The notes under the pieces: model-generated
The model's input: only the letters and a program-made list of their open reading frames with translations
Told to the model about the DNA's origin: nothing
The model's database searches: none
Position numbers and translations under genes: made by a program
Shown: positions 2,920-28,474 of the stretch, in pieces
Numbering within the stretch: the stretch's first letter is position 1
Layout of the letters: every line of letters begins with the position of its first letter
Assembly (NCBI GenBank): GCA_000004695.1
Contig: CM000150.2
Span: 2,400,001-2,464,000, forward strand
Direction: 5' to 3'
From: Dictyostelium discoideum
Taxonomy: Eukaryota
DNA length: 64,000 bases

Positions 2920-3725
2920 GGTGGTTCGATAGGTTTTTCTGATTTTGTTTTAATTTCTTGATTGTTTATCGATTGTGTATTGATCTCATTCTCTATTCTT
3001 GTTAGTTCATCTACGTTTTCTAGTGATGCTTCTATTACCTTTTGAGCTGTATCATCTAGGGCCATAAATGTTTTATCATTAGATGAGGATGTGATTGGTG
3101 GGATAATGATTGTTCTTTTTCCTTGTTTTGGTATTTGTTCTGATGTAGATTGTGGTTGTTGTTCATCTGATTGTTTTTTATTTTTGTTTTCTTCTTGATT
3201 TTCTGGTAATGAGGTTTGATCTCTCCATCCTTTGTTGGAGTGTCCAATTAATGTTAGATTGTCTAGTTCAATGATAGTGTCAAATTCTTCTACGACTCTT
3301 TTCACTGTTTTGATAATTAGAGTTTCGCCTTTAATTTCTGATTTAATTAGTTTACATCCTTCATTTTCTATTACCCATTCTATTTCTGTGAGTGATTTAT
3401 ACCAATCAAAATCTGTATACATATTTTTTGGTCTTATAGTGGTTATAAATTGTCCTTTTAATTCTGCATCAAACATATTTACAAAATAGATTACTGTACT
3501 AATACTGTCTGTGAGAATTTTGAATGTATTATTACTTTTGATTAAAACATCTTTTTTGTCCAAACTTTTTTCTAAATCTTTTTTTATTTTATCGTCTGGT
3601 TCGTGATTGATGTTTATGACGTATTTGAATTGTTTTTTTTTTAATTGAGTTTTATCCACAATTTCGCTTATTTTTTGTAGGCATTTGTGTTGCTTAATAT
3701 TTGTGGTGTTGTTTGTGATTTTCAT
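2920..3725 (-). CDS. TRE5-A-type ORF1 (MKITNNTTNIKQHKCLQKISEIV...), C-terminal end lost in the N gap
   Basis: The same ORF recurs at 25241-25771 (C-terminal part ending ...EPPSPYNTPIK). Its first ~90 codons are also present in each B-module copy (12385-12660, 27593-27865). The track ORF 2814-3725 runs through the Ns. Confidence 0.6.
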
Positions 3726-3802
3726 TTTATTTTCTTTCTATCTTTTTTATTTTTCTTTAAAAAGTTAAAAATCTGGAAATTTTCTAATTAACTTGGTTCC
3801 CA

Positions 3803-3848
<46 letters not shown>

Positions 3849-3851
<3 letters not shown>

Positions 3852-4690
3852 TCTTTTTTATATGAAAAATGAAATAATCAAAAAAAGAGATTGTTGTTGT
3901 TGTTTGTTTTTTTCGATCTGATTATTTTTTGCTTTTTTTTTGAAAATTTTGCTACGCAAAATTCTCAAAACGAAACAAATAATAAATTACAATAAAGTAA
4001 AAAGATGGCTTTTTAAAATAGTTTATTTATTTATTTATTTGTTTTTTAAGTCTTTTTTATATGAAAAATGAAATAATCAAAAAAAGAGATTGTTGTTGTT
4101 GTTTGTTTTTTTCGATCTGATTATTTTTTGCTTTTTTTTTGAAAATTTTGCTACGCAAAATTCTCAAAACGAAACAAATAATAAATTACAATAAAGTAAA
4201 AAGATGGCTTTTTAAAATAGTTTATTTATTTATTTATTTGTTTTTTAAGTCTTTTTTATATGAAAAATGAAATAATCAAAAAAAGAGATTGTTGTTGTTG
4301 TTTGTTTTTTTCGATCTGATTATTTTTTGCTTTTTTTTTGAAAATTTTGCTACGCAAAATTCTCAAAACGAAACAAATAATAAATTACAATAAAGTAAAA
4401 AGATGGCTTTTTAAAATAGTTTATTTATTTATTTATTTGTTTTTTAAGTCTTTTTTATATGAAAAATGAAATAATCAAAAAAAGAGATTGTTGTTGTTGT
4501 TTGTTTTTTTCGATCTGATTATTTTTTGCTTTTTTTTTGAAAATTTTGCTACGCAAAATTCTCAAAACGAAACAAATAATAAATTACAATAAAGTAAAAA
4601 GATGGCTTTTTAAAATAGTTTATTTATTTATTTATTTGTTTTTTAAGTCTTTTTTATATGAAAAATGAAATAATCAAAAAAAGAGATTGA
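3849..4690. repeat. 199-bp tandem repeat, about 4.2 units (A-module array of TRE5-A)
   Basis: The unit aagtcttttttatatgaaaaatgaaataatc... restarts at 3849, 4048, 4247, 4446 and 4645 (period 199). The same unit in reverse complement is found at 12003-12290 and 24915-25250. Confidence 0.85.
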
Positions 4691-4736: not shown

Positions 4737-4808
4737 GGCTCCTTAGCATAGTGGTATTGCGCTTCCCTAGTAAGGAAGAGGTCATGAGTTCGATCCTCAT
4801 AGGAGCCT
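4737..4808 (+). tRNA. tRNA-Thr (anticodon AGU)
   Basis: GGCTCCT/AGGAGCC acceptor stem; A box TAGCATAGTGG; anticodon stem CTTCC/GGAAG with loop CTAGTAA; T arm ATGAG-TTCGATC-CTCAT (B box GGTCATGAGTTCGATCC). Folded by eye. Confidence 0.8.
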
Positions 4809-4820
4809 TTTAAACCAAAG

Positions 4821-4847
4821 GGATAAAAATCGCAGGTTCGATTCTAG
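4821..4847 (+). promoter_or_regulatory. External B box (exB) about 25 bp downstream of tRNA-Thr
   Basis: ggataaaaatcgcaGGTTCGATTCtag matches the B-box consensus GGTTCGANTCC without a tRNA body. Dictyostelium tRNA genes commonly carry an extra B box downstream. Confidence 0.5.
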
Positions 4848-7542: not shown

Positions 7543-7941
7543 TTTCCTAAAATGGATAAACTTTAATTAAGAAAACTTTAAACTGTCTTCATCAAAAATC
7601 ACATCAGGCAAATTAAAAATATTAAAAATCAAAAAATCAACGACTATTCTATACCAAACACAGTTTTACCAAAACAGAGTATTTGTAGATCAATTTATTT
7701 AAGATATAGTAACTCTAAAATAATATAGCATACTATTTTATTATTGAAATATTTAATTAACTAATCCTATAAATTTAAAAATATAAATAAACAAAATAAA
7801 CAACATTTGGAGCTTCTACAAATCTAGAAAATAATTAATCTAAAAAAAAAAAAAAAATAAAATAAACTTTGGTTAAGTCAATGCTAAAAAAAAAAATCAA
7901 ACCAAATGAAGGATACCACTTTAAAACTAAAAAATATTCAT

Positions 7942-7978
<37 letters not shown>

Positions 7979-8348
7979 ATATTTTTTAATTTTTTTTTTT
8001 TTTTAATAAAAATTTTCAAAGAATTAACCCAATCACACATGTCCCAAAATTATTATGACAATACAGACTTTCTTTCTTTCACATTCTAAAATGAAATCGA
8101 ATTAATTTCATTCTTTTTGATAATGGTTTATTTTCGATGTTTTGATTTTATTTTTATATTTAAACTCTTTAATAATTTTAATTTTTATTAATCAATCAAA
8201 CATAAATTTAATATATACATATAATAAATATAAATAATTATAAATTAATAAATAATAATATTAAAAAAATCATATATTAATAATATAAATAAATAGCCAT
8301 AAATTAAAAATCATTTTTTTAAAAAAAAATATATATTTAAAAAAAAGA

Positions 8349-8934
8349 ATGACAAAATTAAAAGTTGGAAATATTGCACCAGATTTTGAAGCTAAAAATT
8401 ATTTAGGTCAAACAGTTACATTAAAAGAATTTAAAGAAAAGAGTCAACCAATCGTTTTATATTTTTATCCAAAAGATAATAGTCCAGTATGTACAAAAGG
8501 TAAGTCAATTTATATTAAATGTTTTTTTTTATTTTTTTTTTTAAATTACTAATAATAAATAACCTTTTTAATATAATAATTCATACATACATACAAACAC
8601 ACACATATATATCAATATAGAGAGTTGTGAATTTAGAGATAAATATCAAAAGTTTATAGAAGCAGGCGCAGAAGTAATCGGAGTCAGTAGCGATGGTGAG
8701 GATAGTCATAAATCATTCGTTTCAAAATATTCATTACCATTCACATTATTAACAGATAAACATAGTAAATTAGCCAAGTTATATGGTGTCAACGGTATAT
8801 TATTACCAGGTAGAAAAACATTTATAATTGATAAACATGGTATTATAGCTGGTATTCATGATGGTTTACTCAGCTCAACTTCTCATATCGATGAATCTTT
8901 AAAAATAATTGAAAAATTAAAATCACAAATCTAA
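8349..8934 (+). CDS. Peroxiredoxin of the BCP/PrxQ type (thioredoxin fold), copy 1. Two exons: join(8349..8499,8621..8934).
   Basis: [50 protein letters not shown], then [48 protein letters not shown].... This is the BCP signature (P..D.TPVCT.E...FRD). Intron 8500-8620 (gtaagt...atatag), phase 1. Confidence 0.75.
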
Positions 8935-9081
8935 ATAATAATTTTTATAATAAATTGTACATGCCCACCCACCTTTGTAATTTTTTTTTATAATAAATTG
9001 TAAATTTTTACGTTTTATAATAACTCCAATATTTCTTAAAGTTTAAATAATTTATTTAAAAGTTTTTTAAAAAATTTAAAA

Positions 9082-9116
<35 letters not shown>

Positions 9117-10093
9117 ATATTTAAAACATAAAGTTCTTCTGAAAGCCTGTAAAGGTTTTGAAAAGTTATATGGTAACAATTGTTATTATTTTTAGATTTG
9201 TTTTTTCTTTAAAAGTTCATAACTAAATCTAATCTTTTGAGTGTTGTAATATAATTGTGTAATAATTAAATTGTTACAATAAAATAATGTTTTATCAACA
9301 TATTAAATTAGATATAATCTCGCTCTCAAACTAAAATAATTTATGATTATAATTAGACTTTTCTCACCTAGGTGGGAAAAAGCCACTTGGTGAGTTTTTA
9401 ATGTCGATTGAAAAACTTATAAACATAATTTCAAATCTCAAATATAAAAAGTAAAAATTTTCAATAGTAAAAGACATTCATAATAAATTTTAGATTTTGT
9501 CGATAACATCAACTTATTACTTTATTTTTATTTATATATATTTATTTATTTATTTTAATTTTATTTTTCTATTACAAGATTCTGATAAAACATGAGCAAT
9601 AATTTAGGCGAGTATTTTTAACTAATTTTATTTAACTAATAAATCATTTATATAAATTATTGTGTTAATGTTCAACATTTGAGGGTATATTTGATAAATC
9701 CTGAAATTAAAAGATAACTAACCAAAAAATTTATAATTTTAAAAAAGAGAGGGAAGAAGAGCAACTAAATTATTTATTAATAATAACACAAACCTACTCT
9801 AATAGATCAAATTACAAAAACATTATTATTTTCATCTTTTTTAAATACCTTTTTTTTTTTTTTTGGAATATTTAAAAAAAAAAAAAAAGATAAATAATGT
9901 TTTGCGTTTGATGTATTAATACACAAAATCACAGAAATATTTTTGAATTTTTTTTTTTTTCAATATTTCATTCCTAATTTTTTACTTCTTTTTAATTAAA
10001 ACCATCATTTTTTAACTTTTGGTGGCACTAATGATGGCACCAATGCCAAAAATCTTTTATTAGTTTTTTTAAAGAAATTTCATTATCTTTTCT

Positions 10094-11873: not shown

Positions 11874-11960
11874 AGACCCCTCAGGGAGTTGAACCCTGGA
11901 CCAACTGCTAACTTCTTACGTTTTGGAGACAATTACAATAAACCACTATGCTAAGGAGTC
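11874..11960 (-). tRNA. tRNA-Trp (anticodon CCA) with a ~13-nt intron 3' of the anticodon loop
   Basis: RC sequence: GACTCCT TA GCATAGTGGTTTAT TGT A ATTGT CTCCAA [AACGTAAGAAGTT] A GCAGT TGGTC CAGGG TTCAACT CCCTG AGGGGTC T. The acceptor stem pairs (with one G-U). The T arm carries a B box. A TTTTTT terminator lies immediately downstream (11867-11873). Confidence 0.7.
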
Positions 11961-12002
11961 ATTGAAAACCAAATGGTTGACACACTTTGATAACCCGCCA
12001 TT

Positions 12003-12272
12003 TATTTCGATCGATCGAAAAAAACAAACAACAACAATCTCTTTTTTTGATTATTTCATTTTTCATATAAAAAAGACTTAAAAAACAAATAAATAAATAA
12101 ATAAACTATTTTAAAAAGCCATCTTTTTACTTTATTGTAATTTATTATTTGTTTCGTTTTGAGAATTTTGCGTAGCAAAATTTTCAAAAAAAAAGCAAAA
12201 AATAATCAGATCGAAAAAAACAAACAACAACAATCTCTTTTTTTGATTATTTCATTTTTCATATAAAAAAGA

Positions 12273-12308
<36 letters not shown>

Positions 12309-12748
12309 GGAACCCAAGTTAATCAGAAAATTTCCAGATTTTTAACTTTTTAAAGAAAAATAAAAAAAATAGAAAGAAAATAAGATGAAAATCACAAACA
12401 ACACCACAAATATTAAGCAACACAAATGCCTACAAAAAATAAGCGAAATTGTGGATAAAACTCAATTAAAAAAAAAACAATTCAAATACGTCATAAACAT
12501 CAATCACGAACCAGACGATAAAATAAAAAAAGATTTAGAAAAAAGTTTGGACAAAAAAGATGTTTTAATCAAAAGTAATAATACAATTCAAAATTCGAAA
12601 CAAAAAAAAAAAAAAAAAAAAAAAAAAGGTAAACCAACCCCTCTTTTAGAGACCCTGTAAAAAAAAAAAAAATAAAATAAAATGAGATCTAGCATCTCAA
12701 GGAGAAGCAAATAATAATTGCGTTATCCAATTCAAAAAAAAAAAAAAA
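12003..12748 (+). mobile_element. TRE5-A-type non-autonomous internal-deletion derivative: A-module x1.4, oligo(A), B-module (with the first ~90 codons of ORF1), A-run, C-module, oligo(A). It is 42 bp upstream of tRNA-Trp, head-to-head.
   Basis: A-module (reverse form) 12003-12290; A-run 12291-12311; cctgggaacccaagttaatcag...ATG MKITNN... 12312-12620; ggtaaaccaacccctcttttagagaccctgtaa + A15 + ataaaataaaatgagatct...ttatccaattc + A18, ending ~12748. The same B+C block terminates the full copy at 27521-27968. Confidence 0.6.
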
Positions 12749-13343
12749 TTTATATTTTTGTGGGTGACATGCTTTATATAGGTGAATACAATTACAATAA
12801 ACCACTATGCTAAGGAGTTATTGAAAACCAAATGGGTTAAACTCTTCGATTAAATTATCAAAATATAAAAAGCTAAGTTAAATATAAAAATAAATTAAAA
12901 TATACTTGTTAACTAAATTGCATTAGACCACTTTCCTTACACATGTAAAGAATGCTCTATTTCCTGCCCACAGCTTCTTGAATGAAAAAATTTAACCACG
13001 GGAGTTATGAATAAATATCTTGAATTCATTGAAACTGATAAAATCTAATTGTGTCTGGGAAGGTTGAACAGAATTTTGAATTCAAAATTAATATTATAAC
13101 TATAATTAATAAATAAAAAAATAAATAGATAATTAAAATTATAAAATACTTTAAGAATATATATAATTTCTAAAAGTAATTTTAGAAATAATAATTATAG
13201 GAATGAACCATCTTCGATACAATTTAATAAGTGTAATGAATACTCTAATACTTTACATGACACTTTAAATATTAATTTACACTTACTACTACTTTCCTTG
13301 AAAAAATGAAATAAACATCTTTGGGTTATTCCCTAAAAAGAAG

Positions 13344-13461
13344 ACACCTTAGCAAAGTGTATAACCCATTTGGTTTTCGATGACACCCAAGCAAAGTTTT
13401 TTACCCATTAGGTTATCTATGACAGTTTAGCGAAGTGTATTACCCATTTAGTATTCCTTAA
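13344..13461 (+). repeat. Three tandem ~39-bp units, each built from the first ~17 nt of tRNA-Ser (A box TTAGCAAAGTGG) plus the ~22-bp 5' leader (cccatttggttttcgat)
   Basis: gacaccttagcaaagtgtataacccatttggttttcgat / gacacccaagcaaagttttttacccattaggttatctat / gacagtttagcgaagtgtattacccatttagtattcctta. Compare the true gene at 14193-14235. RC copies at 27969-28082 and 24874-24914. Confidence 0.6.
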
Positions 13462-13466
13462 CAACT

Positions 13467-13870
13467 TTTTTTTGAATTGGATAACGCAATTATTAGTTGC
13501 TTCTCCTTGAGATGCAAGATCTCATTTTATTTGTAGTTTTTTACAGGGTCTCTAAAAGAGGGGTTAGTTTACTTTTTTTTTTTTTTTTTTTTTTGTTTCA
13601 AATTTTGAATTGTATTATTACTTTTGATTAAAACATCTTTTTTTCCCAAACTTTTTTCTAAATCTTTTTTTATTTTATCGTCTAGTTCGTGACTGATGTT
13701 GATGATATATTTGAATTGTTTTTTTTTATTTGAGTTTTATCCACAATTTCGCTTATTTTTTGTTGGCATTTGTGCTTAACTTGGTTGCCAGGTTTTTTTT
13801 TTTTTTTTTTTATTTTTTTTTTTTTTTTAGTCTTTTTATATGAAAAATGAAATAATCAAAAAAAGATACC
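13467..13870 (-). mobile_element. TRE5-A-type B-module + C-module fragment with the last 35 bp of an A-module (minus orientation), carrying a small deletion at the ORF1 start
   Basis: RC of the C-module (13475-13560), T-run, RC of the B-module/ORF1 start with an internal deletion (cctggcaaccaagttaag|cacaaatgcc), T-run 13789-13835, then the A-module end aagtctttttatatgaaaaatgaaataatcaaaaaaag. Confidence 0.5.
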
Positions 13871-14176
13871 TCCACCAAAGAATAAGTAACACTCCTACTT
13901 CATATATAAAACTGTGGGAAGAGGAACTCAAAAACAACAACAACAACAAAACAACAACAACAAAACAAAATCAACTACACTGGCAATGCAAGCAAGCATG
14001 GACCCAATTAAAAACTCCACAAAATAAACAAACACACTACGAAAACCTCCCAAAATTAAAAAAAATATACGAGGATATGATGACAACCCAATCTCCAGAA
14101 CACAACAAATTCATACCAACTCCTGGCCAAAAAGAAATAATTACCAAAATTAATAGCAAACACCTTCCTTTCCCTT
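13871..14176 (+). pseudogene. Internal TRE5-A-type ORF2 fragment (~100 codons, YLHQRISNTPTSYIKLWEEEL...KHLPF), fused to the A-module on its 5' side and to the tRNA-Ser leader on its 3' side at short microhomologies
   Basis: ~95% identical to 26563-26875 of the ORF2 copy. The 5' junction is at aaaaaaaga|tacctcc (shared aaga). The 3' junction is at cacctt|cc.. vs caccttagcaaagt. Track ORF 13840-14178 begins in the A-module (MKNEIIKK). Confidence 0.55.
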
Positions 14177-14215
14177 GACAACTTAGCAAAGTATTTTACC
14201 CATTTGATATTCGAT

Positions 14216-14296
14216 GACACCTTAGCAAAGTGGTTAATGCGGCGCCCTGCTAAGGCGTTCTCTTCGGAGGCGCAGGTTCGAACCCTGCAGGTGTCG
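14216..14296 (+). tRNA. tRNA-Ser (anticodon GCU), with a long variable arm
   Basis: GACACCT TA GCA AAGTGGTTAA TGC G GCGCC CTGCTAA GGCGT TCTCTTCGGAGGC GCAGG TTCGAAC CCTGC AGGTGTC G. The G73 discriminator is typical of tRNA-Ser. Confidence 0.85.
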
Positions 14297-14321
14297 AATT
14301 TTTAACTTCCAAACCTGAATA

Positions 14322-14341
14322 ACAGGTTCGATTCCTGTTGT
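14322..14341 (+). promoter_or_regulatory. External B box downstream of tRNA-Ser(+)
   Basis: aacaGGTTCGATTCCtgtt, about 26 bp after the tRNA 3' end. Confidence 0.45.
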
Positions 14342-14516
14342 ATTATATACAAAATAATTCTCGATAACAGCTAAATTTTCATGGGTGCAAGAATTAAAAA
14401 TAATATAAATAATTAATAAATTAGTAATCAAATCTATAATTTAAAAATAAAAACTAATTAACAAGATTAACAAATCGGAACAGATTTTATATAAATTTTT
14501 TGTTTATGAGCACAAT

Positions 14517-14636
<120 letters not shown>

Positions 14637-14817
14637 AAAAATTTTACAGCTTTTAATGAAAATGATCTTAAAACTTTAAAATCTTTAGATGATAAACTAT
14701 TAATATTAATAATTTACCTGCTGGTTATATTTGCAATAGAAAATCTGAAATATGTGTATTATTAAAACATCAATAACCACAGAAGGTATATCAAATATTA
14801 GAGAAGTTATATTAAAA

Positions 14818-14856
<39 letters not shown>

Positions 14857-14957
14857 TAAAAAAGTGATTAAAAAAAAAAATAAAAATAAAAATAAAATAA
14901 ATAAATCTAATTTTATTAAAAAAAATATAGAAAAAAGAATTTAAAAGTGGTTATTTC

Positions 14958-15180
14958 AAAAGAAAATGTAGTAATATGATATGTATCATAACCCAATCCA
15001 ATTGTAAGAAAGGAAAGATTTATCTAAGCACTATATCATTTAGAAAAATTAATGTTCATATCAAAACTATCATATCCAAAGGGAAATAAAAAATGATCAA
15101 TATTAATCTATTGTCAGAGAAAGGAAAGATTTATCTATGCACTATGACATTACGAAAATATATGGCCATATAACTCCCTA
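14958..15180. repeat. Left arm of a ~225-bp inverted-repeat pair. Its partner is at 17566-17785 and the arms are about 90% identical.
   Basis: aaaagaaaatgtagtaatatgatatgtatcataacccaatc...cagagaaaggaaagatttatctatgcactatgacattacgaaaatatatggccatat is the reverse complement of 17566-17785. Each arm has an internal ~35-bp direct repeat (aaaggaaagatttatcta[a/t]gcactat). Confidence 0.6.
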
Positions 15181-15580
15181 AAAAAAAATTCAATAAAGTT
15201 TATTGAATAAACCTTAGAATTTTTAAATAAAACAGCATTTCAAAAAACAAATTTAATTAAAATTAAATAATAAAATAAAATAAATAAAAAAATAAATATT
15301 TGAAAAAAATAATACATATTTTCATTAAAGTTTTGAAAAAACATAAAATTCTTTTCACACATTCTAAAATGAAATCGAACCAATTTTTTCTTTAGGATGA
15401 TAGTTTGTTTTGATATTTTAAATTTATTTTTAATATTTAAACTCTTTGATTTTAATTTTTGTTAATCAGTTAAACATAAATTAATATAAATATAAATAAT
15501 TATAAATTAATAAATAATATAAATAATCATAAATTAAAAATCATTTTTTTTTTAAAAAAAAATATATATATAAAAAAAGA

Positions 15581-15866
15581 ATGACAAAATTAAAAGTTGG
15601 AAATATTGCACCAGATTTTGAAGCTAAAAACTATTTAGGTCAAACAGTTACATTAAAAGAATTTAAAGAAAAGAGTCAACCAATCGTTTTATATTTTTAT
15701 CCAAAAGATAATAGTCCAGTATGTACAAAAGGTAAGTCAATTTATATTATTACATAATTCAATAAACTTAAATGTTTTTTTTTTTAATATACTAATAATA
15801 AAATAACCTTTTAAATATAATAAAATTACCAACATACATACATACATACATACATACATACATACA

Positions 15867-15899
<33 letters not shown>

Positions 15900-16221
15900 C
15901 AATATAGATAGTTGTGAATTTAGAGATAAATATCAAAAGTTTATAGAAGCAGGCGCAGAAGTAATTGGAGTCAGTAGCGATGGCGAAGATAGTCATAAAT
16001 CATTCGTTTCAAAATATTCATTACCATTCACATTATTAACAGATAAACATAGTAAATTAGCCAAATTATATGGTGTCAATGGTATATTATTACCAGGTAG
16101 AAAAACATTTATAATTGATAAACATGGTATTATAGCTGGTATTCATGATGGTTTACTCAGCTCAACTTCTCATATCGATGAATCTTTAAAAATAATTGAA
16201 AAATTAAAATCACAAATCTAA
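15581..16221 (+). CDS. Peroxiredoxin of the BCP/PrxQ type, copy 2. Two exons: join(15581..15731,15908..16221).
   Basis: The exons are nearly identical to copy 1. The intron is longer because of a (CATA)n expansion at 15841-15896. The ~100-bp upstream promoter region (..cacattctaaaatgaaatcga..) is also shared. Confidence 0.75.
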
Positions 16222-16809
16222 ATAATAATTTTTATAATAAATTGTACATATCCACTTATCATTGTATATTTTTTTTGTTTTATAATAATTCACCAATTAA
16301 TATCAATAATTCTTTAATTTTAAATAAATTATTTAAAATATTTAATAAAAAATAAATAATAAACCAAATCAATAATTATATTCTCTTTTAAAAATAATTA
16401 TAAAAAATGAATGGTAAATAATAAAATACTTAAAGTCTACTTTTTCTTAAGAAATTCATATTGATGGGAGTTGGCGGATAAAATACATAAAAGATTTGGA
16501 AGAGTTTTATTTTTGATTATTTTTTTTTTTTTTTTTTTTTGGTATTTGAATCCAAGAACATTAACAAACCATTTTATCTATGAATTAAAGATTTTTTTAA
16601 AATAAATTAAAACAGTTAAAAAAAAAAAAAAGTTTGAAAATTTAAAAATATTTATTCAAAGAAAGAATTTAAAAGAATTAAAATTATTTTTTTTATTGGT
16701 TTTTTATTGGTTTTTTTTTTTTTTTTTTTTTTTTTTGATATCGAATAGTTTTTATATTTATTTTTAATTTTTTAGTTTAAAAATTTTTTTTTTTTTTTTT
16801 TTACACTAA

Positions 16810-17466
16810 ATGAAAGAAAAAACTACAGCAACAACAACAACAACAACAATACCAACAAGGAATGCAGATGATGATTATGAATTAATTAAAGTTTTAATGT
16901 TGGGTGATTATAAAACTGGTAAAGGTTCAGTTTTAAGAAGATACCATTATAATGAATTTGAATTAGGAGTATCATCAATTGGTGTTGATTTTGTTATAAG
17001 AGATTATGGTATTGTAAATGGTAAATATTATAAAATTCAAATTTGGGATGCAAATAGTTGTGAAAGGTTTAGATCAATAACACAAGCCTATTATAGAGGT
17101 GCACATGGTTTTATGTTATTATATGATTGTACCAATCAAGAATCATTTAATAATTTACAATTTTGGATCAATGAAATTATAAATAAATCACCAAATTCAA
17201 ATAATTCAACAATTGTTATCATTGGTAATAAATGTGATTTAGTTAATGATATTAAAATTGATCCAATAAAATCTAAACTATTTTGTGATTCAAAATCAAT
17301 AACTTCATTTCAAAATGTTTCTGCCAAAGATTCTATCAATATAAACGAACCATTTGAAATTTTATTTAAACAAATAATTGAAAAAGGTCATTCACAAACA
17401 ATTTCTCCAAAACTAATAAAACAAAGATATGAAAACAATAATAATAAATCATGTAATATTTTATAA
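16810..17466 (+). CDS. Rab-family small GTPase-like protein (218 aa) with non-canonical G1 and G3 motifs and a C-terminal CNIL (CaaX-like) box
   Basis: LIKVLMLGDYKTGKGSVLRRY (P-loop GDYKTGKGS instead of GDSGVGKS), IGVDF, IQIWDANSCERFRSITQAYYRGAHGFMLLYD (DANSC replaces DTAGQ), GNKCDL (NKxD), VSAKD (SAK), ends ...KSCNIL. Confidence 0.65.
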   Translation: MKEKTTATTTTTTIPTRNADDDYELIKVLMLGDYKTGKGSVLRRYHYNEFELGVSSIGVDFVIRDYGIVNGKYYKIQIWDANSCERFRSITQAYYRGAHGFMLLYDCTNQESFNNLQFWINEIINKSPNSNNSTIVIIGNKCDLVNDIKIDPIKSKLFCDSKSITSFQNVSAKDSININEPFEILFKQIIEKGHSQTISPKLIKQRYENNNNKSCNIL

Positions 17467-17565
17467 TTTGTAAAAAAAAAGTTATTTAATTTTAATTAAA
17501 TTTGTTTTTGAAATGTAATTTTATTTGAAAATTCTTTTTAGGCTTATTGGAAAATTTAGGGGGGG

Positions 17566-17785
17566 GAATGATATGGTCATCTATTTTAGTAATGTCATAG
17601 TGCATAGATAAATCTTTCCTTTCTCTGACATTAGATTAATATTGATTATCATTTTTTATTTCCCTTTGAATATGATAGTATTGGTATGAATAATAACTTT
17701 TCTAAATGGTATAGTGCATAGATAAATCTTTCCTCTACCAATTAGATTGGGTTATGATGCATGTCATATTACTACATTTTCTTTT
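17566..17785. repeat. Right arm of the inverted-repeat pair (partner at 14958-15180)
   Basis: Reverse-complement match to the left arm. The pair brackets BCP copy 2 and the Rab-like gene. Confidence 0.6.
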
Positions 17786-18343
17786 TCCTTTATTTTTTAA
17801 AAATAAAATTAGAAAATTTATTTTTTTTTTTTTTTTTTTCACTTTTTTTAACTTTTTATTTACCTTTTTTTTCTATATAATTCTATCTTAAATCTTTTAA
17901 TATCTTTTTTTTTTTGAAATAATACTATTTCATTTTATTTGTTTTGATTTTTTGGTTTGGAGTGAAAAAAAAAAAATAAAAAAAAAAAAAAAGTCTATTT
18001 ATACTCTGATAAAAATTTTTATTATTTCCTATTTAAAATTATTTAGATTTGTCCTAAAAAGGAGTTTTTACTTTTTTTTTTTTTTTTTTTTTTTTTCCTA
18101 TTTTTTTATCAATCAAAAAAATTTCTAAATTGGAAAATAATAGATCTATTATTAATTAATATTAATAATAAAAATGGTAAAATAGGAAAACTAATTTAAT
18201 TTTAATTTTTTTTTTTATTCTTAATCTCCCCATACACCATTTATCAACATTCAAATTCTTTTTCAAATGATAAACCAATAAAAAAAAATAAAAAAAAAAT
18301 AAAAAAATAAAAAAAAAATTAAATAAATTATACAGATGCAATA

Positions 18344-18396
<53 letters not shown>

Positions 18397-18675
18397 GTTT
18401 AATAATTTTTATTAATTTTAGTAATTAAAAACTTCTGGGATATTCTCCTCTATTATTTGATAAGCCATCTGTGAGTGTTTTAATGATATCTTAAATCTTT
18501 TCACTGTAAATATTTATTGATTCCATTAATATTATGATTATCCAAACTTATTAAAAAGATAAAAAAGATAAAAAAAATTGTTAAATTTATAGATAAATTA
18601 TATATAAATTAAAAAAAAGATAAAAAAAGATAAAAAAAGATAAAAAAAGATAAAAAAAGATAAAAAAAGATAAAA

Positions 18676-19003
18676 TTTTTTTTTTTTTTTATTGTAAAGT
18701 AATATACCTTTTGCTTAATGTTTATTTATTTTTTATTTTTTAGTTATTTTTTTTAGAAGTTTATGAGTTGGAATGAGTTGTCGATGTGTGAAGCTTTCCA
18801 GGATTGTTTGAATTTGTTGATCCAGTTAGTGCAGTGTTGGTTTCTTGTGGTGAAGTTGTGTTTTGGAAAGTTCAAGGTTGATGATTCCGAGCCATTTTTT
18901 GTTTATTATTTCGTTTTTTATTAGTTCTTGAAGTGATTCAATTTTGTCTGATTGTGAGATGGTGGGGTTGAATTGAATTTTGCATATCCATACCCAAATG
19001 AAG
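18676..19003 (-). mobile_element. 3'-terminal fragment of another TRE-family element (ORF2 C-terminal ...FIWVWICKIQFNPTISQSDKIESLQELIKNE..., 3' UTR, oligo(A)). It is truncated by the next insertion.
   Basis: The RC translation is similar to the C-terminal HQIWIWLCK-type region of TRE ORF2s. T-run 18676-18690. The neighbouring element's TSD lies inside it. Confidence 0.4.
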
Positions 19004-19118
19004 TTTTTTTTTTTTTTTTACCTGTGATCAGACCTTCAAGGAATGTCCTTGTGTCTTTTCGGCGGTGTTTGTTAAACGATTTTATTTTTATTATTCAATT
19101 GTATTAAATTTTTTAAAC

Positions 19119-19164
<46 letters not shown>

Positions 19165-20027
19165 ACTACTTAAATTGGAAGAGGGTTCGGAATTGCTGGG
19201 GTTTGCCAGGCTTTGTTGAATTTGTATTTGTGAAGATCTTGATTGGTGTTTTTTAGTATTGCTTCGTCGTGTTTGATTTTCTTTAGTGTGATGAATTTTT
19301 CAGTTTCGATGAGATTTAGTAATTCTGTTTCTATGACCTTTTGCTGGAATTTTGGCTCTGGTTTGCTTTCATCAGTGTTGAACAATTTGTGACAGATTAT
19401 CTTCCATAATTGGTGTGCTATTATTCCTATGAGATTGGGGAAGATTCTCTCAGTTCTGTTGTATTTTGATATGTCTAAGGTATCCATTGACCATCTGTGG
19501 ATTTTGATGAATGATAATTTGTTAACTGTTGATATGATGGTTTTTTCAATATATAGGATATCTTGGCATAGAGTGAAGAGGTGAGAATAAGGGTCTCTGA
19601 ATAGGTGGCCCCAGATCTTGCATCTGGTGTCTCTTTCGTGGTTGATACCTGGAAGTGATCTTGAGAAGAATCTGAAGAGGGTGTTTCTACCTTTTTGGTG
19701 AGAAATGCTGTTGATGTTTATGAATACTTTGGGTATTGCTGTGTTGTATCTCACCGCCCATAACTTCTGCCATTCTGTTCTTCTTGGTGTTGGGTGTCTG
19801 TCTTTGATCATGAGTTCGTAAATTTCTTTCAGTTTTAGTGGTTCGTTATTGTCGTTTCTTATACAGCCTGGAAGTTCATTTATCTTTGGATGGTTTTGGT
19901 AAAATTTGACTCTGAATACACCCCAGTGTCTGCACATATCGTTGAGGGTTGAAGTGTGGGCTTTTTTTTTACTTAATTGCTCCATGTACCATTCTTGTAA
20001 AGTATTGTTGTTGTTGTAGTTGTTATT
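19004..20027 (-). mobile_element. TRE3-type element, 5'-truncated ~1-kb copy, with a 13-14-bp TSD. It is inserted into the older TRE fragment.
   Basis: Same 3' end as 10094-10847 and 7260-7542. T-run at 19004-19019. TSD tacccaaatgaag at 18991-19003 and 20028-20040. ORF2 C-terminal 287 aa (track 19170-20033). Confidence 0.7.
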
Positions 20028-20196
20028 ACCCAAATGAAGTGGAATATGATGGAGGTGTAGATTTTTTTTTTTTTTACCTAAAAGCGGTGTATTGTTATAT
20101 TTTATTACATTTTTAAATTTTTAGATTTTTAAATTTTTAAATTTTTATATTGTTATATGTTGATATTTTTGGTTATATTATGATTACTACTACTTG

Positions 20197-20226
<30 letters not shown>

Positions 20227-20227
<1 letters not shown>

Positions 20228-23200
20228 TATAATGGAATTGGGTTTGGAGTGTTCGGGTTATGCCATGATGTGTTGAAGTTGATTATTAATTGGTCTCTGT
20301 TATTTAATTTGTATATTGTTTCACTCCTTTCGATCTTCTTTATTAAAATGAATTTCTCTATTTTAATTAAGTTGGTTAGTTCTTTTTCAATTAATGTTGG
20401 ATCAAATGAGGGTGGAGTTTTAGATTCGTCTTGATTGAATAGTTTGTGACAAATTATTCTCCATAGTTGATGTATAATTATGCCGATTAAATTTGGGTAG
20501 ATTCTTTCTTTTTTATTTGTTTTGCTAATATCTAGTGAATTGAGATCCCAATTTCTGATCTTGAAGAATGAGAGATTGTTGAATGTTGAAATTATTATGT
20601 TTTCTATTTCTTTTACTTGCATACAGTCTATAAAAAGGTGAGTGTATGGGTCACGGATTATATTGTTACAGATTTTGCATGGTACGTTACGTTCATAGTT
20701 GATTCCAGGAAGTGACCTTGAGAAAAATCTGAATAGTGTATTTCTACCTTTTTGATGTGATATGTGGTTGATATGTTGGAAGATGGATGGTATGTTGATG
20801 TTATTTATTGAAATTAGATTTTTTTGTCCATCTGTTTTTCTTATTGATTTGTATTTGTGAGTGATTAACATGTTATAGATTTCTTTAAGTTGAAGTGGCT
20901 TTTTGTTTTGACCTTTGATACAATCAGGTAGTGATTTTAGTTTATTGTGTTGTGGTGCAAAGTTGTTTCTAAAATCTTTCCATCTGTCTACCATCTCTCT
21001 TAATCCAATTGATATATATTTGCTGTTGCTGATTTGTTCCATATACCATTCTTGTAGTATGTTGCATGCTTTTATCTTGATAATGTGTAATAATCTATTC
21101 ATGTTCCAAACTTTGAATGCTACTTGTCTGATACCTAAGTCCCACATCTTAATTCCACCTTCTTTCCAATCACCGTATGCTCTATCCATTGTCATTAATG
21201 TTCTATATTTATGTTCTTCTGTGTATGTATTTTTAATTGCGGAGAAGAGGAACCATTTAATGATATTGTTTAGTTCAGTAATGTGTGATTCATTTAGTGA
21301 GTCTAGATATTGATGGTAGGATAATCTCGATAGCGCATATGTTTTGACAATTGTCATCTTTGCTCTTATTGTAGTTGCTTGACTTTTCCAATTGTTTAAG
21401 CTATCTTTGATTGAGTTGATGATTGATGTGATTTTTGAATTGAGGCCCACTTTCGTGAAATTGAGACCCAAGTATCTTTCTGGAGCTTCACTAATCTTAA
21501 ATGGGAGGTTTGGTGGTATATTACCAATGCATATCATAACAGTTTTCTCTTGATTAAGTTTTGAAGATGTACCTAGACAGTAGTTGTTGATTTTGTCCAA
21601 TACTAATTTTAATTCTTCTGCTGAGTTGTTGAAAGTTGACATATCATCTGCGAATGCTGTTAGCTTGATTCTTTTCTGGTCTGATAATTTAAATCCTTTA
21701 ATTTCGATTTCTTTAAGTATATCAATTAGTAGTGCTTCCATTACAAGTGCAAATATTGTTGGTGATAATGGATCTCCTTGTTTTGTGCCTCTGTTAACTG
21801 TAATGTGTCCCACCAGGAAGTCATTTATCTTGATCTTATTCGTTGTTTCTTTTAATAGATTCATTATTAATTCTACTATCGTTTTTGGTATGCCAATGTG
21901 GCTCAATGTTCTTCTGATACTTTTGTGGCTAATTGAGTCGAAAGCTTTGTTGAAATCGAAGAATGTGATTAACGTAGTACTATTTCTTGATTTGTTTGCT
22001 CTTTCGATTACCTCCTTCATTATTTGAATATTATCTTGGATGTAACGATTTGGAACAAACCCATTTTGAAATTTGTTTATTATTTTCTTTGTAACTGCAA
22101 GTAAACGGTTGTTGATGATCTTACTTAATAGTTTGTAGTCCGTATTGAGTAGAGTAATTGGTCTTCTATTAGCTATTTGTAGTTCGTCTCCTTTCTTGAA
22201 TAGTGTTGTGATAAATCCTTCTTTGAAGTTGGGATTGATTTCTTTTTGATTAGTTAATGTATCATTAAATACTTTTGCTAAGATTGTTGAAAGTGATGCA
22301 GAGTGGTTTCTATATAATGCAGCATTGATTCCATCTAGTCCTGGAGATTTGTGTGGATTAGAATTTTTAATTGCATTATTGACTTCTTTTGGTGTGATTG
22401 CACTATCTAATGATAGTCTGGAAATGTATTGTTTGTCCACTATCCATTTATCCAATAGTTCCTTGTGTTTACTTTCATTATCTGGTTTTTCATCGTATTG
22501 TTCTTGATAGAATTCTAAGAAGCATTTGGCTATTTCAACTTTTTCTGATACAATTGTTCCATCTTTATTTTTAATTTGGAATATGGATCTGTCCTTTTTC
22601 CTTTTCTTTAGTTTACTTGTTAGATATCTACTTGGAGTTTCTTGGTTTAAGTGAAGTTTCAATTTGGTTTCCCATTGTTTATTTGCTTCTTCTTCTTTCA
22701 ATAACTCTTCCATTTCGTCTTCTAGTTGCTTTCTTTGACCAGGGTATAAATCTTCTCTTTCAATTAATCTATGTAACCTACTCTTCTTTTTGTTTTTTTC
22801 CTTTTTTATCAAGTTCTGTTGCTTTTTGAGATGGTGCCTGATTGTATAATTCTTAAAGTGGATCCAGTCATCTAGTGTGTTGATGTATTGTTTGTTGTTT
22901 TCTATGATTTGCGAGATTTCTTCATGAATTGTTGGATCAGCCAATGTTTCTTTGCATAATGTCCACGGGAGTTTTTCAATTTTGATGTTGTTGATGTTGA
23001 TATCGTTTGCGCTATTGTTATTCATTTTTAAATCTATTGAAATAGGTGTGTGGTCAGATTTGTTGTAAATATCTTCATGCACCCTTAGCGGGTTTGAACC
23101 CACCATTGTTGGTTTACAATAAATTCTGTCCAATCTGCTATTAGATCTTGAAAAAGTTGCGATATTGTTGTTTGCACCTATATCTTTCAGGTTGCTTTCT

Positions 23201-23676
23201 TCAATTATACTTCTGATACCAATACCATAGTGTGAATTGTTGTTGTGGTCTGCATTAAAGTCACCTGCAATGATGTCATGTTTGATTTTTTGATCTTTAA
23301 TGAGATTCTTTGCTGCTATAATGAATGCATTTCTTCTAGGTATTGATGCTGGGGCATAAATTAAAAGGATGTTGATGTTGATATACGAATTGAATTTAAC
23401 TGATAATATTCTACCTTCTGTATCTTTGAAATTTACTGTTAGATAGCCAGTGCTTAAATTTCTATTCTCTATTGATACACCAGTGCCTTTACCGTTTCCA
23501 TGATCTATCCTTTCATAGTTGAACATTGATTTATAATGATTGAATGTTGAACCGTTTGTTTCTGTAAGTAATGTGATTTGGGGACCTATTCTCTTGATCG
23601 TTTCTTCAGCTTTTTTATTTGAGAGAGGGCTTGAACTACCTCTGCAATTCCATAATAAAATTTTTAATTTTTCCAT
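20227..23676 (-). CDS. ORF2 (1149 aa) of the TRE3-type element: AP-endonuclease, reverse transcriptase, C-terminal CCHC zinc finger
   Basis: MEKLKILLWNCRGS...(APE: GDFNADHNN, SDHTPIS), HKSPGLDGINAALY, NRRPITLLNTDYKLLSK, FFDFNKAFDSISH, TKQGDPLSP, FADD, ...PCKICNNIIRDPYTHLFIDC. Single uninterrupted ORF. Confidence 0.8.
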
Positions 23677-23883
23677 CCTCTTGATAGGGTTGGGTTACCA
23701 TTTGGTGGTTGACCACCACTTGGTTTTGTTTGTGTAGTAATATTGTTTGTTGTATTTGAGTTGTTTAATTTATTTGTGATGATTGTTTTGTTGTTGTTGT
23801 TGACATTTTTGTCGTTGTTATTATTGCTGTTGTTATTATTATTGTTGTTGTTGTTGGAGTTATTGGAGTTATTGGAGTTATTG

Positions 23884-23945
<62 letters not shown>

Positions 23946-24404
23946 TTGTATTATATTTGTATTATTGTTAGGTTGATTGGTTGTTGTTTGTTTTTTGTTT
24001 TTCTTTTTAGCTTCCTCCCTATCTTCTCTACTAATAGATTCACAGAAGTATACTTTAATTTGATTGTTGTTGTTTTTATATGATTGAATTTGATTATTGA
24101 TTATATTTGTATTTGTTGATTTGTTGAATAGTATTATTGCTGAATATCTGTGCACATCATTCATAATTTTAACGTTGCATTCATCAACTTCCTCTGCTTC
24201 TACTCCCATGTTTGTTTGTACATCTTCTTTTGTTATTGCTTTTGTTATATTTTTTGTGAAGGTATGGAAGTGGAGGTAGTGGTGATTAGGAAAGTATGGG
24301 ATGAATCTTTGAATTCTATATATTCCATCCTCATCCTTTATTTGAAATGTGCAAAATGAATCGTGTAGATGTTTCAAATTTTCTTTTAGAATTCTACCCA
24401 ACAC
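23664..24404 (-). CDS. ORF1 (246 aa) of the TRE3-type element, with N-rich low-complexity C-terminal half
   Basis: MLGRILKENLKHLHDSFCTFQIKDEDGIYRIQRFIPYF.... It lies directly upstream of ORF2 and overlaps it in a different frame, as is typical of non-LTR elements. Confidence 0.5.
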
Positions 24405-24551
24405 TGTTATACCTTTTGATTTTCTAATTATTGTTTTATCTTTGAGGAGTGTATTGTCAATGAATTTGAGAGTATTACTATTTAATTCTGCTGTATTTGG
24501 GTAGTATAGTCTGATTTTATATGTTGAGTTATTTAGTAATTCTTCATTGAA

Positions 24552-24554
<3 letters not shown>

Positions 24555-24605
<51 letters not shown>

Positions 24606-24627
24606 TGTGATCAGACCTTCAAGGAAT
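24555..24627 (-). mobile_element. Nested, extremely 5'-truncated TRE3-type insertion (only the last 27 bp of the 3' module plus ~48 A), flanked by a 13-bp TSD, inside the 5' UTR of the full-length element
   Basis: T48 + ttacctgtgatcagaccttcaaggaat, which is the RC of ...attccttgaaggtctgatcacaggtaa + poly(A). TSD cttcattgaatac at 24542-24554 and 24628-24640. Confidence 0.55.
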
Positions 24628-24706
24628 CTTCATTGAATACAAATTTGTTACTGATGAGATTGAAAAAGTTATTGTTCATTTTTTTTTTTTTTTTTTTTAT
24701 TTTTTT

Positions 24707-24753
<47 letters not shown>

Positions 24754-24792
24754 TATTTTATTACGTGATAAAAAAAAGATAAAAAGATAGAT

Positions 24793-24873
24793 CGACACCT
24801 GCAGGGTTCGAACCTGCGCCTCCGAAGAGAACGCCTTAGCAGGGCGCCGCATTAACCACTTTGCTAAGGTGTC
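24793..24873 (-). tRNA. tRNA-Ser (anticodon GCU), second copy
   Basis: Exact reverse complement of the 14216-14296 gene. The 5' leader cccatttggttttcgat is conserved. Confidence 0.85.
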
Positions 24874-25240
24874 ATCGAAAACCAAATGGGTAATACACTT
24901 CATTTAACCAAATGTGTAAAGGAGATCGAAAAAAAACAAACAACAACAACAATCTCTTTTTTTGATTATTTCATTTTTCATATAAAAAAGACTTAAAAAA
25001 CAAATAAATAAATAAATAAACTATCTTAAAAAGCCATCTTTTTACTTTATTGTAATTTATTATTTGTTTCGTTTTGAGAATTTTGCGTAGCAAAATTTTC
25101 AAAAAAAAGCAAAAAATAATCAGATCGAAAAAAAACAAACAACAACAACAATCTCTTTTTTTGATTATTTCATTTTTCATATAAAAAAGACTTAAAAAAC
25201 AAATAAATAAATAAATAAACTATCTTAAAAAGCCATCTTT

Positions 25241-25771
25241 TTACTTTATTGGTGTATTGTATGGAGATGGTGGTTCAATAGGTTTTTCTGATTTTGTTTT
25301 AATTTCTTGATTTTTTATCGATTGGGTATTGATCTCATTCTCTATTCTTGTTAGTTCATCTACGTTTTCTAGTGATGCATCTATTACCTTTTGAGCTGTA
25401 TCATCTAGGGCCATAAATGTTTTATCATTAGATGAGGAGGTGATTGGTGGGATAATGATTGTTCTTTTTCCTTGTTTTGGTATTTGTTCTGATGTAGATT
25501 TTGGTTGTTGTTCATCTGATTGTTTTTTATTTTTGTTTTCTTCTTGATTTTCTGGTAATGAGGTTTGATCTCTCCATCCTTTGTTGGAGTGACCAATTAA
25601 TGTTAGATTGTCTAGTTCAATGATAGTATCATATTCTTCTACGACTCTTTTCACTGTTTTGATAATTAGAGTTTCGCCTTTAATTTCAGATTTAATTAGT
25701 TTACATCCTTCATTTTCTATTACCCATTCTATTTCTGTGAGTGATTTATACCAATCGAAATCCGTATACAT
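25241..25771 (-). pseudogene. Inverted 3' segment of TRE5-A-type ORF1 (…MYTDFDWYKSLTEIEWVIENEGCKLIKSEIKG…EPPSPYNTPIK*) inside the rearranged copy
   Basis: 94% identical to 2920-3470. The breakpoint at ~25800 runs into the plus-strand ORF2. Confidence 0.55.
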
Positions 25772-25799
25772 ATTTTTGGTCTTAGAGTGGTTATAAATT

Positions 25800-27457: not shown

Positions 27458-27516
<59 letters not shown>

Positions 27517-27968
27517 GGAACCCAAGTTAATCAGAAAATTTCCAGATTTTTAACTTTTTAAAGAAAAATATAAAAAATAGAAAGAAAATAAAATGAAAAT
27601 CACAAACAACACCACAAATATTAAGCAACACAAATGCCTACAAAAAATAAGCGAAATTGTGGATAAAACTCAATTAAAAAAAAAACAATTCAAATACGTC
27701 ATAAACATCAATCACGAACCAGACGATAAAATAAAAAAAGATTTAGAAAAAAGTTTGGACAAAAAAGATGTTTTAATCAAAAGTAATAATACAATTCAAA
27801 ATTCGAAACAAAAAAAAAAAAAAAAAAAAAAAAGTAAACTAACCCCTCTTTTAGAGACCCTGTAAAAAAAAAAAAAAAATAAAATAAAATGAGATCTAAC
27901 ATCTCAAGGAGAAGCAACTAATAATTGCGTTATCCAATTCAAAAAAAAAAAAAAAAAAAAAAAAAAAA

Positions 27969-28082
27969 CCAAATGTGTAATACACTTTGCTAAGGTGTCA
28001 TCGAAAACCAAATGGGTAATAAACTTTGCCAAGGTATCATCGAAAAATATTTGGTGATACACTTCGCTAAGGTGTCATTGAA
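27969..28082 (-). repeat. Three tandem ~39-bp tRNA-Ser leader/A-box units in reverse orientation, abutting the poly(A) end of the TRE5-A copy
   Basis: ccaaatgtgtaatacactttgctaaggtgtcatcgaaaaccaaatgggtaataaactttgccaaggtatcatcgaaaaatatttggtgatacacttcgctaaggtgtcattg is the RC of the unit seen at 13344-13461. Confidence 0.55.
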
Positions 28083-28474
28083 AAATAAACCACCACAAGA
28101 CTAATTTTTTAATTAATAATTTTTTTTTTAATTGTTTTATTGTTTTTTTTTTTTTTTTTTTTAAGACTGTGGCGCTGACTATAATAATTTTTGAACCTTT
28201 ATTGAAATATAATTAAAAAAATACAAAAAATAAAAATAATTAGTAAAGTGACTGTTTTTTTATTTTTATAAAAATATTTTATAATATAAGTTGTTTTCTT
28301 TATTTATTTGTTTATTTATTTATTTTAATTTTTTTTTATTTTAAAAAAAAAAAAGTTTAAAACTTTTAAAATTATTTAAACTTTAAGAATTATTGGAGTT
28401 ATTTGGAATATTATAAAACAAAAAAAAATTACAAAGGTGGGTGGATATGTGCAATTTATTATAAAAATTATTAT

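Follow-up and report, generated by a model that had tools for sequence, protein, structure and literature searches.

The ex-B box of Dictyostelium tRNA genes is a single, widespread element. The retrotransposon TRE5-A, built as AB-ORF1/ORF2-BC with modules in the order A(n)-B...B-C (PMC3159450, PMC5391098, PMC9012585), inserts upstream of tRNA genes at 47+/-3 bp and in a fixed orientation (PMC5391098, PMC3159450), with about 80% of insertions falling within 47+/-3 bp (PMC5391098). The target-site duplications published for TRE5-A measure 10-16 bp (PMC9012585). The Dictyostelium A-box consensus is TRRYNNARYNG, starting at +8, and a G at position 18 is required (PMC5391098).

The window analysed here is a stretch of 64,000 nucleotides of the Dictyostelium discoideum AX4 genome (GCA_000004695.1, contig CM000150.2, positions 2,400,001 to 2,464,000) in which the 5' boundary of tRNA-Ser(GCU) genes is repeated in tandem beside the poly(A) tails of TRE5-A elements. 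We consider it very probable that the repeats form a lineage-restricted minisatellite that was seeded at the tRNA 5' boundary, pre-dates TRE5-A, and has since undergone copy-number change and, probably, homogenisation of its units. The features are collected in Table 1, with the published AX4 chromosome 1 coordinates of TrpCCA-3, SerGCU-1 and SerGCU-2 taken from the S2 Table of PMC5391098; once 2,400,000 is subtracted, they correspond to the tRNA positions in the window. ARAGORN places the two tRNA-Ser(GCT) genes at 14215-14297(+) and 24792-24874(-). Our analysis of the AX4 SerGCU genes covers two, SerGCU-1 and SerGCU-2, of a set with roughly ten further members. ARAGORN labels the gene at 11874-11960(-) as Leu(caa), which is a mislabel; its sequence reads as a tRNA-Trp(CCA) with an intron and agrees with the published TrpCCA-3, so that the identity given to it in the original prediction is upheld by both.

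Table 1. Features of the window that bear on the repeat arrays (positions are those of the window).
Feature	Position	Strand	Basis and remarks
tRNA-Thr(AGT)	4737-4808	+	ARAGORN
tRNA-Trp(CCA) with intron, TrpCCA-3	11874-11960	-	sequence reading; published 2411874-2411960
Ser-type 'CAAAGTG + leader' segment directly 5' of tRNA-Trp	11961-11989	-	profile positions 11-39, E 1e-4
Short TRE5-A derivative upstream of tRNA-Trp, A-A-B-C + poly(A), no ORFs	12013-12748	+	self-BLAST, sequence
tRNA-Trp partial copy, nt 1-36 (12784-12819) + leader (12820-12850)	12784-12850	-	BLAST
Locus 1 pseudo-units U1-U3, 3 x 39 bp	13343-13459	+	TRF; profile E 3e-13 to 4e-10
Locus 1 distal target-site duplication copy TATTCCTTAACAAC	13452-13465	+	11/14 match to 14169-14182
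Locus 1 old TRE5-A remnant	13466-13874	-	self-BLAST
Locus 1 inverted TRE5-A ORF2 fragment, joined to remnant 5' end	13862-14168	+	94-95% to 26559-26871
Locus 1 proximal target-site duplication copy TTTCCCTTGACAAC	14169-14182	+	insertion point 47 nt upstream of tRNA +1
Locus 1 pseudo-unit U4, abuts gene directly	14177-14215	+	profile E 1.3e-10; 15/17 to tRNA nt 1-17
tRNA-Ser(GCU), SerGCU-1	14216-14297	+	ARAGORN; Rfam tRNA 61 bits; published chr1 2414216-2414296
tRNA-Ser(GCU), SerGCU-2	24792-24873	-	ARAGORN; Rfam tRNA; published 2424793-2424873
Locus 2 proximal flank, 46 nt	24874-24919	-	sequence reading; profile
Locus 2 rearranged TRE5-A	24920-27968	+	self-BLAST map, ORFs, sequence
Locus 2 distal array: U3 5' part, then U2, U1	27969-28076	-	17-mer matches; profile

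TRF detected in the window a period of 39 bp at 13343-13456, with 2.9 copies, no indels and the consensus GACACCTTAGCAAAGTGTATTACCCATTTGGTTTTCGAT, which is made up of the 17-mer GACACCTTAGCAAAGTG (tRNA-Ser nt 1-17) and the 22-nt leader TATTACCCATTTGGTTTTCGAT found directly 5' of the gene. A profile built from eight units returned, in a search of the window, matches with E-values from 3e-13 to 1e-4; at the Ser loci these lie at 13343-13459 (three units), 14177-14215, 27966-28076 (three units) and 24874-24901. Beyond the Ser loci the profile matches are confined to two Trp-linked sites (11961-11989 and 12820-12848), both of them 29-nt 'CAAAGTG + leader' segments, one 5' of tRNA-Trp and the other 5' of its partial copy. 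The exact motif CCATTTGGTTTTCRAT is present five times in all, 5' of the Trp gene, of one Ser gene and of the Trp partial copy, and also within pseudo-units; the other Ser gene has a two-mismatch variant directly upstream, and the motif was not found upstream of tRNA-Thr. The original description of the repeats thus stands in its essentials: the units consist of tRNA-Ser nt 1-17 plus leader (here delimited at 22 nt), all the copies it listed are present at coordinates that differ by a few bases at most, the leader motif marks the Ser genes (in one case with two mismatches) and the Trp gene and spares Thr, and the units, which lie outside TRE5-A sequence, are tRNA-derived rather than internal to the element.

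In a window of 24% G+C with abundant simple repeats, likeness among the units could be put down to chance or to the low complexity of an AT-rich genome. However, GACACCTTAGCAAAGTG at up to three mismatches was matched 12 times in the window where shuffles gave an expectation of 0.03, the profile E-values reach as low as 3e-13, and the units are phased with the gene at exactly 39 nt, so that such an explanation has next to no probability. When the unit junction GCRAAGTKTWTYACCCATTTRG was used to scan metagenomes it gave three matches, all of which we rejected as chance, as they lie in G+C-rich, apparently non-dictyostelid contigs without a tRNA.

At locus 1, the SerGCU-1 locus, the array is split by an element composed of two parts. 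The remnant begins with a poly(A) tail (8 T on the + strand), followed by a C-module, a B-module, an A-rich run and a 35-nt piece of A-module; in self-BLAST, 13466-13857 matched 12741-12337 at 86% and 13601-13857 matched 3516-3773 at 84%. The sequence to which the inverted fragment corresponds (26559-26871) falls within the ORF2 reading frame at 25787-27457, and the whole element (13466-14168) has about 85% identity to other TRE5-A copies. The incomplete match between its two target-site duplication copies fits with this age. The final 6 nt of the distal copy TATTCCTTAACAAC are the start of unit U4, and removal of the element together with one duplication copy restores an array of four 39-nt units whose phase runs exactly into the gene.

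Locus 2, the SerGCU-2 locus, has the same organization. Its proximal flank comprises the leader (24874-24895), a GAAGTG remnant of U4 (24896-24901) and the 3' part of the U3 leader, inside which lies the 12-nt duplication CCAAATGTGTAA, identical at both ends of the element (24908-24919 and 27969-27980). The element contains 1.65 A-modules, an inverted 5' fragment of ORF1 (25252-25809), the 3' part of ORF2, a B-module, a C-module and poly(A), and its 5' end (the A-modules) points toward SerGCU-2(-). Reconstruction by hand, without the element and one duplication copy, gave units of 38, 39, 37 and 28 nt. In a second strain (L004), 99.4% identical, the structure is as in the window.

A third split array was found outside AX4, in a D. 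cf. discoideum lineage (L009) whose locus is syntenic with locus 2, the array coming after EF1alpha and AhpC, in that order. Syntenic loci were fetched through the neighbouring EF1alpha and RabT proteins; the EF1alpha search was dominated by universal homologues, and its Dictyostelium cluster served for synteny. Here four 39-nt units are split by a different, short form of TRE5-A bounded by an exact 15-nt duplication, GTTTTCAATGACACC, and removal of the element with one duplication copy again leaves four units of 39 nt that are exactly in phase with the gene. Because both the duplication and the form of TRE5-A differ from those at locus 2, this insertion is independent of the AX4 insertions. 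An element of roughly 400 bp with TG...CA ends is also present at -13 in L009.

The three insertions are alike in geometry. The distance from element to tRNA +1 is 47 nt at locus 1, 46-47 nt at locus 2 and 48 nt in L009; in all three the 5' end points toward the tRNA gene, the target-site duplications are 12-15 bp long and lie inside the arrays, and the poly(A) stands directly against the duplication. These insertions are therefore canonical. Since the 3' end of TRE5-A always faces away from the tRNA gene, the upstream part of a split array comes to adjoin the poly(A), and the roughly three units found there, together with the 1 to 1.3 units at the gene, are the halves of one pre-existing array.

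These junctions bear directly on two ways in which TRE5-A itself could have made the units. First, the units could be template-switch or 3'-transduction products, with the TRE5-A reverse transcriptase copying pre-tRNA or flanking transcripts, as might be suspected from arrays that abut poly(A) tails. However, at three of three junctions the sequence next to the poly(A) is already target DNA, in the form of the target-site duplication, with nothing in between, and no second poly(A) was found beyond the arrays at any of them. In addition, the 22-nt leader keeps its genomic order, the units continue in phase into the gene across the element, and arrays also occur without TRE5-A. We judge this origin extremely improbable, and the suggestion of template switching in the original prediction has to be given up.

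Second, the units could be oversized target-site duplications left by repeated TRE5-A integrations, or by repair of staggered endonuclease breaks without an insert. One observation leans toward such an origin. In L019, from the D. discoideum assembly GCA_054859385.1, a 22-nt, 5'-truncated TRE5-A insertion upstream of tRNA-Trp carries a 15-nt duplication, AAAAAAAGATGACTC, that includes the Trp leader and tRNA nt 1-5; breaks made by TRE5-A can therefore copy the tRNA 5' edge at a small scale and at the normal duplication length. However, a period of 39 bp lies outside the published range of 10-16 bp (PMC9012585), and the window elements have their own duplications of 12-14 bp inside the arrays. 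The repeats that flank the elements are thus the short ones, while the 39-bp units run head-to-tail on one side, and no TRE5-A sequence lies between four head-to-tail units. Nor are the units confined to sites that hold an element, as the next comparison makes plain, and we regard an origin as oversized duplications, as originally proposed, as very unlikely.

An empty-site comparison, recommended at the outset, was made possible by the same GCA_054859385.1 assembly. In L007/L019, two tandem units stand directly 5' of tRNA-Ser(GCU) and no TRE5-A sequence was found upstream of the gene. The distal flank of L007 aligns with that of AX4 locus 1 at 77% (z about 6) and meets the array at the same CTAAAAAGAA boundary, which makes L007/L019 a true empty site. 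With the distal flank shared, the unit count is four at AX4 locus 1 and two in L007; copy number varies between lineages. In D. citrinum (L018), by comparison, units and the CCCATTTGG leader are both missing from the two tRNA-Ser(GCU) genes. A sequence upstream of D. citrinum gene 1, ACAAAATGTATTAT, was considered as a unit junction and rejected, since it agrees at 11 of 14 positions and is unsupported by the profile search. The arrays do not extend beyond the D. discoideum species complex, and the evidence from L007, L009, D. citrinum and the Trp locus of L013 (described below) together establishes that they pre-date the AX4 insertions: the arrays are older than, and independent of, TRE5-A. 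Of the reported link between units and TRE5-A 3' ends, the adjacency is real (the poly(A) abuts the array), but the TRE5-A-free array of L007 removes a causal role for the element, and the association is incidental.

For the preferred minisatellite, the order of events is as follows. A 39-bp stretch of a tRNA-Ser(GCU) gene, reaching from -22 to +17, was duplicated in tandem before TRE5-A arrived, presumably through slippage in replication or through unequal exchange at this 5' boundary. TRE5-A then inserted at its usual distance of about 47 nt from the real gene, on the upstream side and with its 5' end toward it, cutting the array so as to leave about one unit with the gene and about three at the poly(A) of the element. 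The repeats have what a minisatellite (unit length 10-100 bp) should have, namely four units head-to-tail and in register at a constant period of 39, and a copy number that changes at one locus (four at AX4 locus 1, two in L007). Descent of the four Ser loci from a single ancestral locus is probable, and effectively one origin has then been sampled.

The tRNA-Trp gene offers a related case. Its partial copy was recovered by BLAST (12788-12850 against 11929-11991, 63 bp at 90%) beyond the short TRE5-A derivative; the copy of leader and nt 1-36 described in the original prediction is thus confirmed, although it lies 35 nt past the poly(A) and not directly against it. No convincing target-site duplication was found for the derivative, the best match being ATTTAT, and the derivative may be a recombinant between B-modules. 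In the D. cf. discoideum L013, the orthologous partial copy (nt 1-35, 35/35 identical) lies 123 nt upstream of the gene and no TRE5-A is present. With the derivative taken out, the spacing of the AX4 copy is about 123 nt before subtracting any target-site duplication. The partial copy is absent from the Trp genes of D. citrinum, D. firmibasis and D. dimigraforme. By analogy with the Ser loci, we envisage that about 123 bp were partially duplicated once, at an earlier time, with the TRE5-A derivative later parting the copy from the gene. A third, degenerate copy of the Trp 5' end at about 12925-12945 was rejected, since its local score of 12 does not differ significantly from the 10.7+/-1.5 of shuffled sequence.

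A different account of the repeats would make them functional Pol III cis-elements, either decoy or auxiliary A boxes for TFIIIC or TTTT stop modules, kept by selection. Each unit agrees with the A box at 10 of 11 positions and contains a TTTT run, several units are identical to the gene at 17/17, and the array shared by AX4 locus 2 and L009 is far better conserved than either of its flanks. However, none of the 14 Ser units has G18: the units stop at +17 and position 18 is T throughout, so that the A-box consensus is incomplete in 14/14, and several Ser units are also altered at T8 or A9. There is no B box in or between the units, whether at 30-60 bp downstream of the A box or elsewhere, and Rfam tRNA matches are to the real genes only. 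The spacing of all three TRE5-A insertions is set by the real gene and not by a pseudo-unit, an indirect indication that TFIIIB is placed only at the real gene. Finally, the units at AX4 locus 1 and L007 are no better conserved than their flank, the Ser(GCU) genes of D. citrinum have neither units nor leader motif, and copy number ranges from 2 to 4. We therefore regard a Pol III function as quite unlikely, and the units appear to have no required function.

A broader possibility, still unlikely, is that the arrays are non-neutral, and that processes of Pol III or of TRE5-A acting at the 5' edge of the tRNA created them, keep them, or both. If breaks staggered about +1 were repaired with little or no insert, the leader would be duplicated together with the tRNA start, and the units could then persist through an effect on TFIIIB/TFIIIC placement or on the termination of Pol III 5' of the gene. 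A small-scale example of such a staggered-break duplication is the one of 15 nt in L019.

The likeness of the units bears on homogenisation and also on selection, for which the evidence is mixed. Leader variants are common to the units of an array and differ between lineages, with CGAT in AX4, CAAT in all L009 units and in the gene, and CCCAAAAA in L007, in a sample of four arrays that are all related by descent. The most distal units (AX4 L1-U1 and L009-U1) match the gene at 17/17, and interior units have three mismatches. Between AX4 locus 2 and L009, the arrays agree at 121 of 141 aligned positions (z about 20), while both flanks are at the level of shuffles, with sensitive BLAST of the distal flanks returning low-complexity noise only; this contrast could reflect selection rather than homogenisation, or indels in the flanks. 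Between AX4 locus 1 and L007, units agree at about 69% and the flank at 77%. For the minisatellite that we favour, likeness among units was probably kept by unequal exchange or by gene conversion against the conserved gene.

Several consequences follow for the study of TRE5-A. What had been supposed to be new activities of the element (giant duplications, template switching, decoys) amounts to ordinary insertion into a repeat that was already in place. That repeat is a small curiosity in itself, being a minisatellite, found at a pair of paralogous loci, in which each unit reproduces the 5' boundary of a tRNA gene; we found no published description of these repeats in a literature search that did not cover the 1991 survey of Dictyostelium tRNA flanks. 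The arrays also constitute a natural experiment, with incomplete A-box copies at distances of 39, 78 and 117 bp on the upstream side of a live TRE5-A target, and existing integration libraries could reveal whether an A box alone repositions TFIIIB. Among the published TRE5-A(bsr) junction reads (SRP098685), 6166 from the 100G library belong to SerGCU-2. For the mapping of TRE5-A junction reads, SerGCU-1, SerGCU-2 and TrpCCA-3 call for caution.

Comparison with described systems places the elements and the repeats in different categories. The elements share position, orientation, duplication length and modules with canonical TRE5-A (DRE) integrations and show nothing unusual, whereas the pseudo-units are target DNA, outside the element and its duplication. 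LINE-1-type non-LTR elements, through 3' transduction or long duplications, likewise leave host sequence beside a poly(A); here, in contrast to 3' transduction, there is no second poly(A), the duplications are of ordinary short length, and arrays also occur without an element. The ex-B box downstream of Dictyostelium tRNA genes, of which GGTTCGATTC at 14325-14334 and 4835-4844 are examples in the window, likewise repeats an internal promoter element for Pol III outside the gene, but the units here are tandem, hold an incomplete A box, and belong to one gene lineage (Ser-GCU) and a Trp neighbour. The short tandem repeats of the Entamoeba tRNA arrays (PMC2652664) are likewise head-to-tail repeats of tens of bp beside tRNA genes, with a copy number that varies between lineages and a likeness that is greater within an array than across lineages. 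The Entamoeba repeats lie between whole genes and, going by the abstract, are not tRNA-derived, whereas the unit described here is the 5' boundary of the tRNA gene itself (leader plus nt 1-17), with the last repeat running into the functional gene.

In the Ser/Trp region, another D. discoideum genome (GCA_054859385.1; loci L007 and L019) carries only one tRNA-Ser(GCU) (L007 19777-20060) where AX4 carries two (compared over AX4 14216-24873). The upstream flank of this single gene is that of AX4 locus 1 (SerGCU-1), and its downstream flank resembles that of locus 2 (SerGCU-2). Additionally, the Ser and Trp genes share one orientation in L007/L019, whereas they are divergent in AX4. Together, the mixed flanks and the co-oriented genes suggest that the AX4 lineage underwent an inversion or a duplication through recombination between inverted tRNA-Ser copies.

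The Trp leaders also differ between lineages. In AX4, the Trp gene and its partial copy both carry the Ser-type leader, CAAAGTG followed by CCATTTGGTTTTCAAT (at 11961-11989 and 12820-12848, respectively), while the orthologous Trp copies of D. cf. discoideum (L013 17708-17740) have another leader in common, AAAATTTCAAA. This difference suggests that the nearby Ser array converted the Trp upstream region in the AX4 lineage. ARAGORN in bacterial mode labelled the AX4 gene tRNA-Leu(caa), but its true identity is tRNA-Trp(CCA); it has no match to the Rfam tRNA model at the gathering threshold.

Insertions close upstream of tRNA genes are found in other lineages as well. A truncated TRE5-A lies ~19 nt upstream of tRNA-Trp in L019, outside the published TRE5-A integration window of 23-211 bp. 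It has 8 additional nt at its 5' junction and a 15-nt target-site duplication, AAAAAAAGATGACTC, that spans the leader and tRNA-Trp nt 1-5. In L009 (D. cf. discoideum), a ~400-bp element sits within the leader of the tandem pseudo-unit U4, 13 nt upstream of tRNA-Ser(GCU); where it lies and how it is built are both consistent with a solo LTR of the DGLT-A type ('H3R').

Features of the AX4 window and of loci from other genomes (L-prefixed)
Feature	Position	Strand	Description
TRE5-A A-module array	3823-4689		4.4 tandem copies, 199 bp each, 98-99% identical
TrpCCA-3, tRNA-Trp(CCA)	11874-11960	-	short intron 3' of anticodon
Truncated TRE5-A	L019 13470-13545	-	22-nt C-module end (5'-truncated) + T10
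~400-bp element	L009 16566-16962		TG...CA termini, 4-bp TAGT duplication
Extra B-box-like GGTTCGATTC	14325-14334		~27 nt downstream of tRNA-Ser (SerGCU-1)
Extra B-box-like GGTTCGATTC	4835-4844		~27 nt downstream of tRNA-Thr
Inverted ORF2 piece	13862-14168		Ser-linked TRE5-A, locus 1
Inverted ORF1 5' part	25252-25809		Ser-linked TRE5-A, locus 2
AhpC/TSA peroxiredoxin paralogues (3)	7830-9128, 15349-16381, 28292-29642		~83% identical

Upstream of tRNA-Thr(AGT) (gene start 4737), pseudo-units are absent, and the A-module array ends 47 nt before the gene. TRE3-like sequence, 68% similar to 20197-22684, begins ~120 nt downstream, at 4928. SerGCU-2 lacks a downstream extra B-box-like sequence. The AhpC/TSA paralogues are scattered among the AX4 tRNA/TRE clusters; other lineages (L006, L007, L013) carry 3-5 copies, some of them in head-to-tail runs in which the copies are spaced ~1.7 kb apart.

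A 100-N assembly gap (2820-2919) falls within a TRE5-A ORF1 region; beside it, the opposite strand carries an ORF for reverse transcriptase (1089-2942). In both Ser-linked TRE5-A copies, an internal fragment is inverted and lies on the 5' side of the element or close to it, and at locus 1 the source region of this fragment is missing from the A-B-C remnant itself. These fragments resemble the twin-priming-type 5' inversions of LINE elements.
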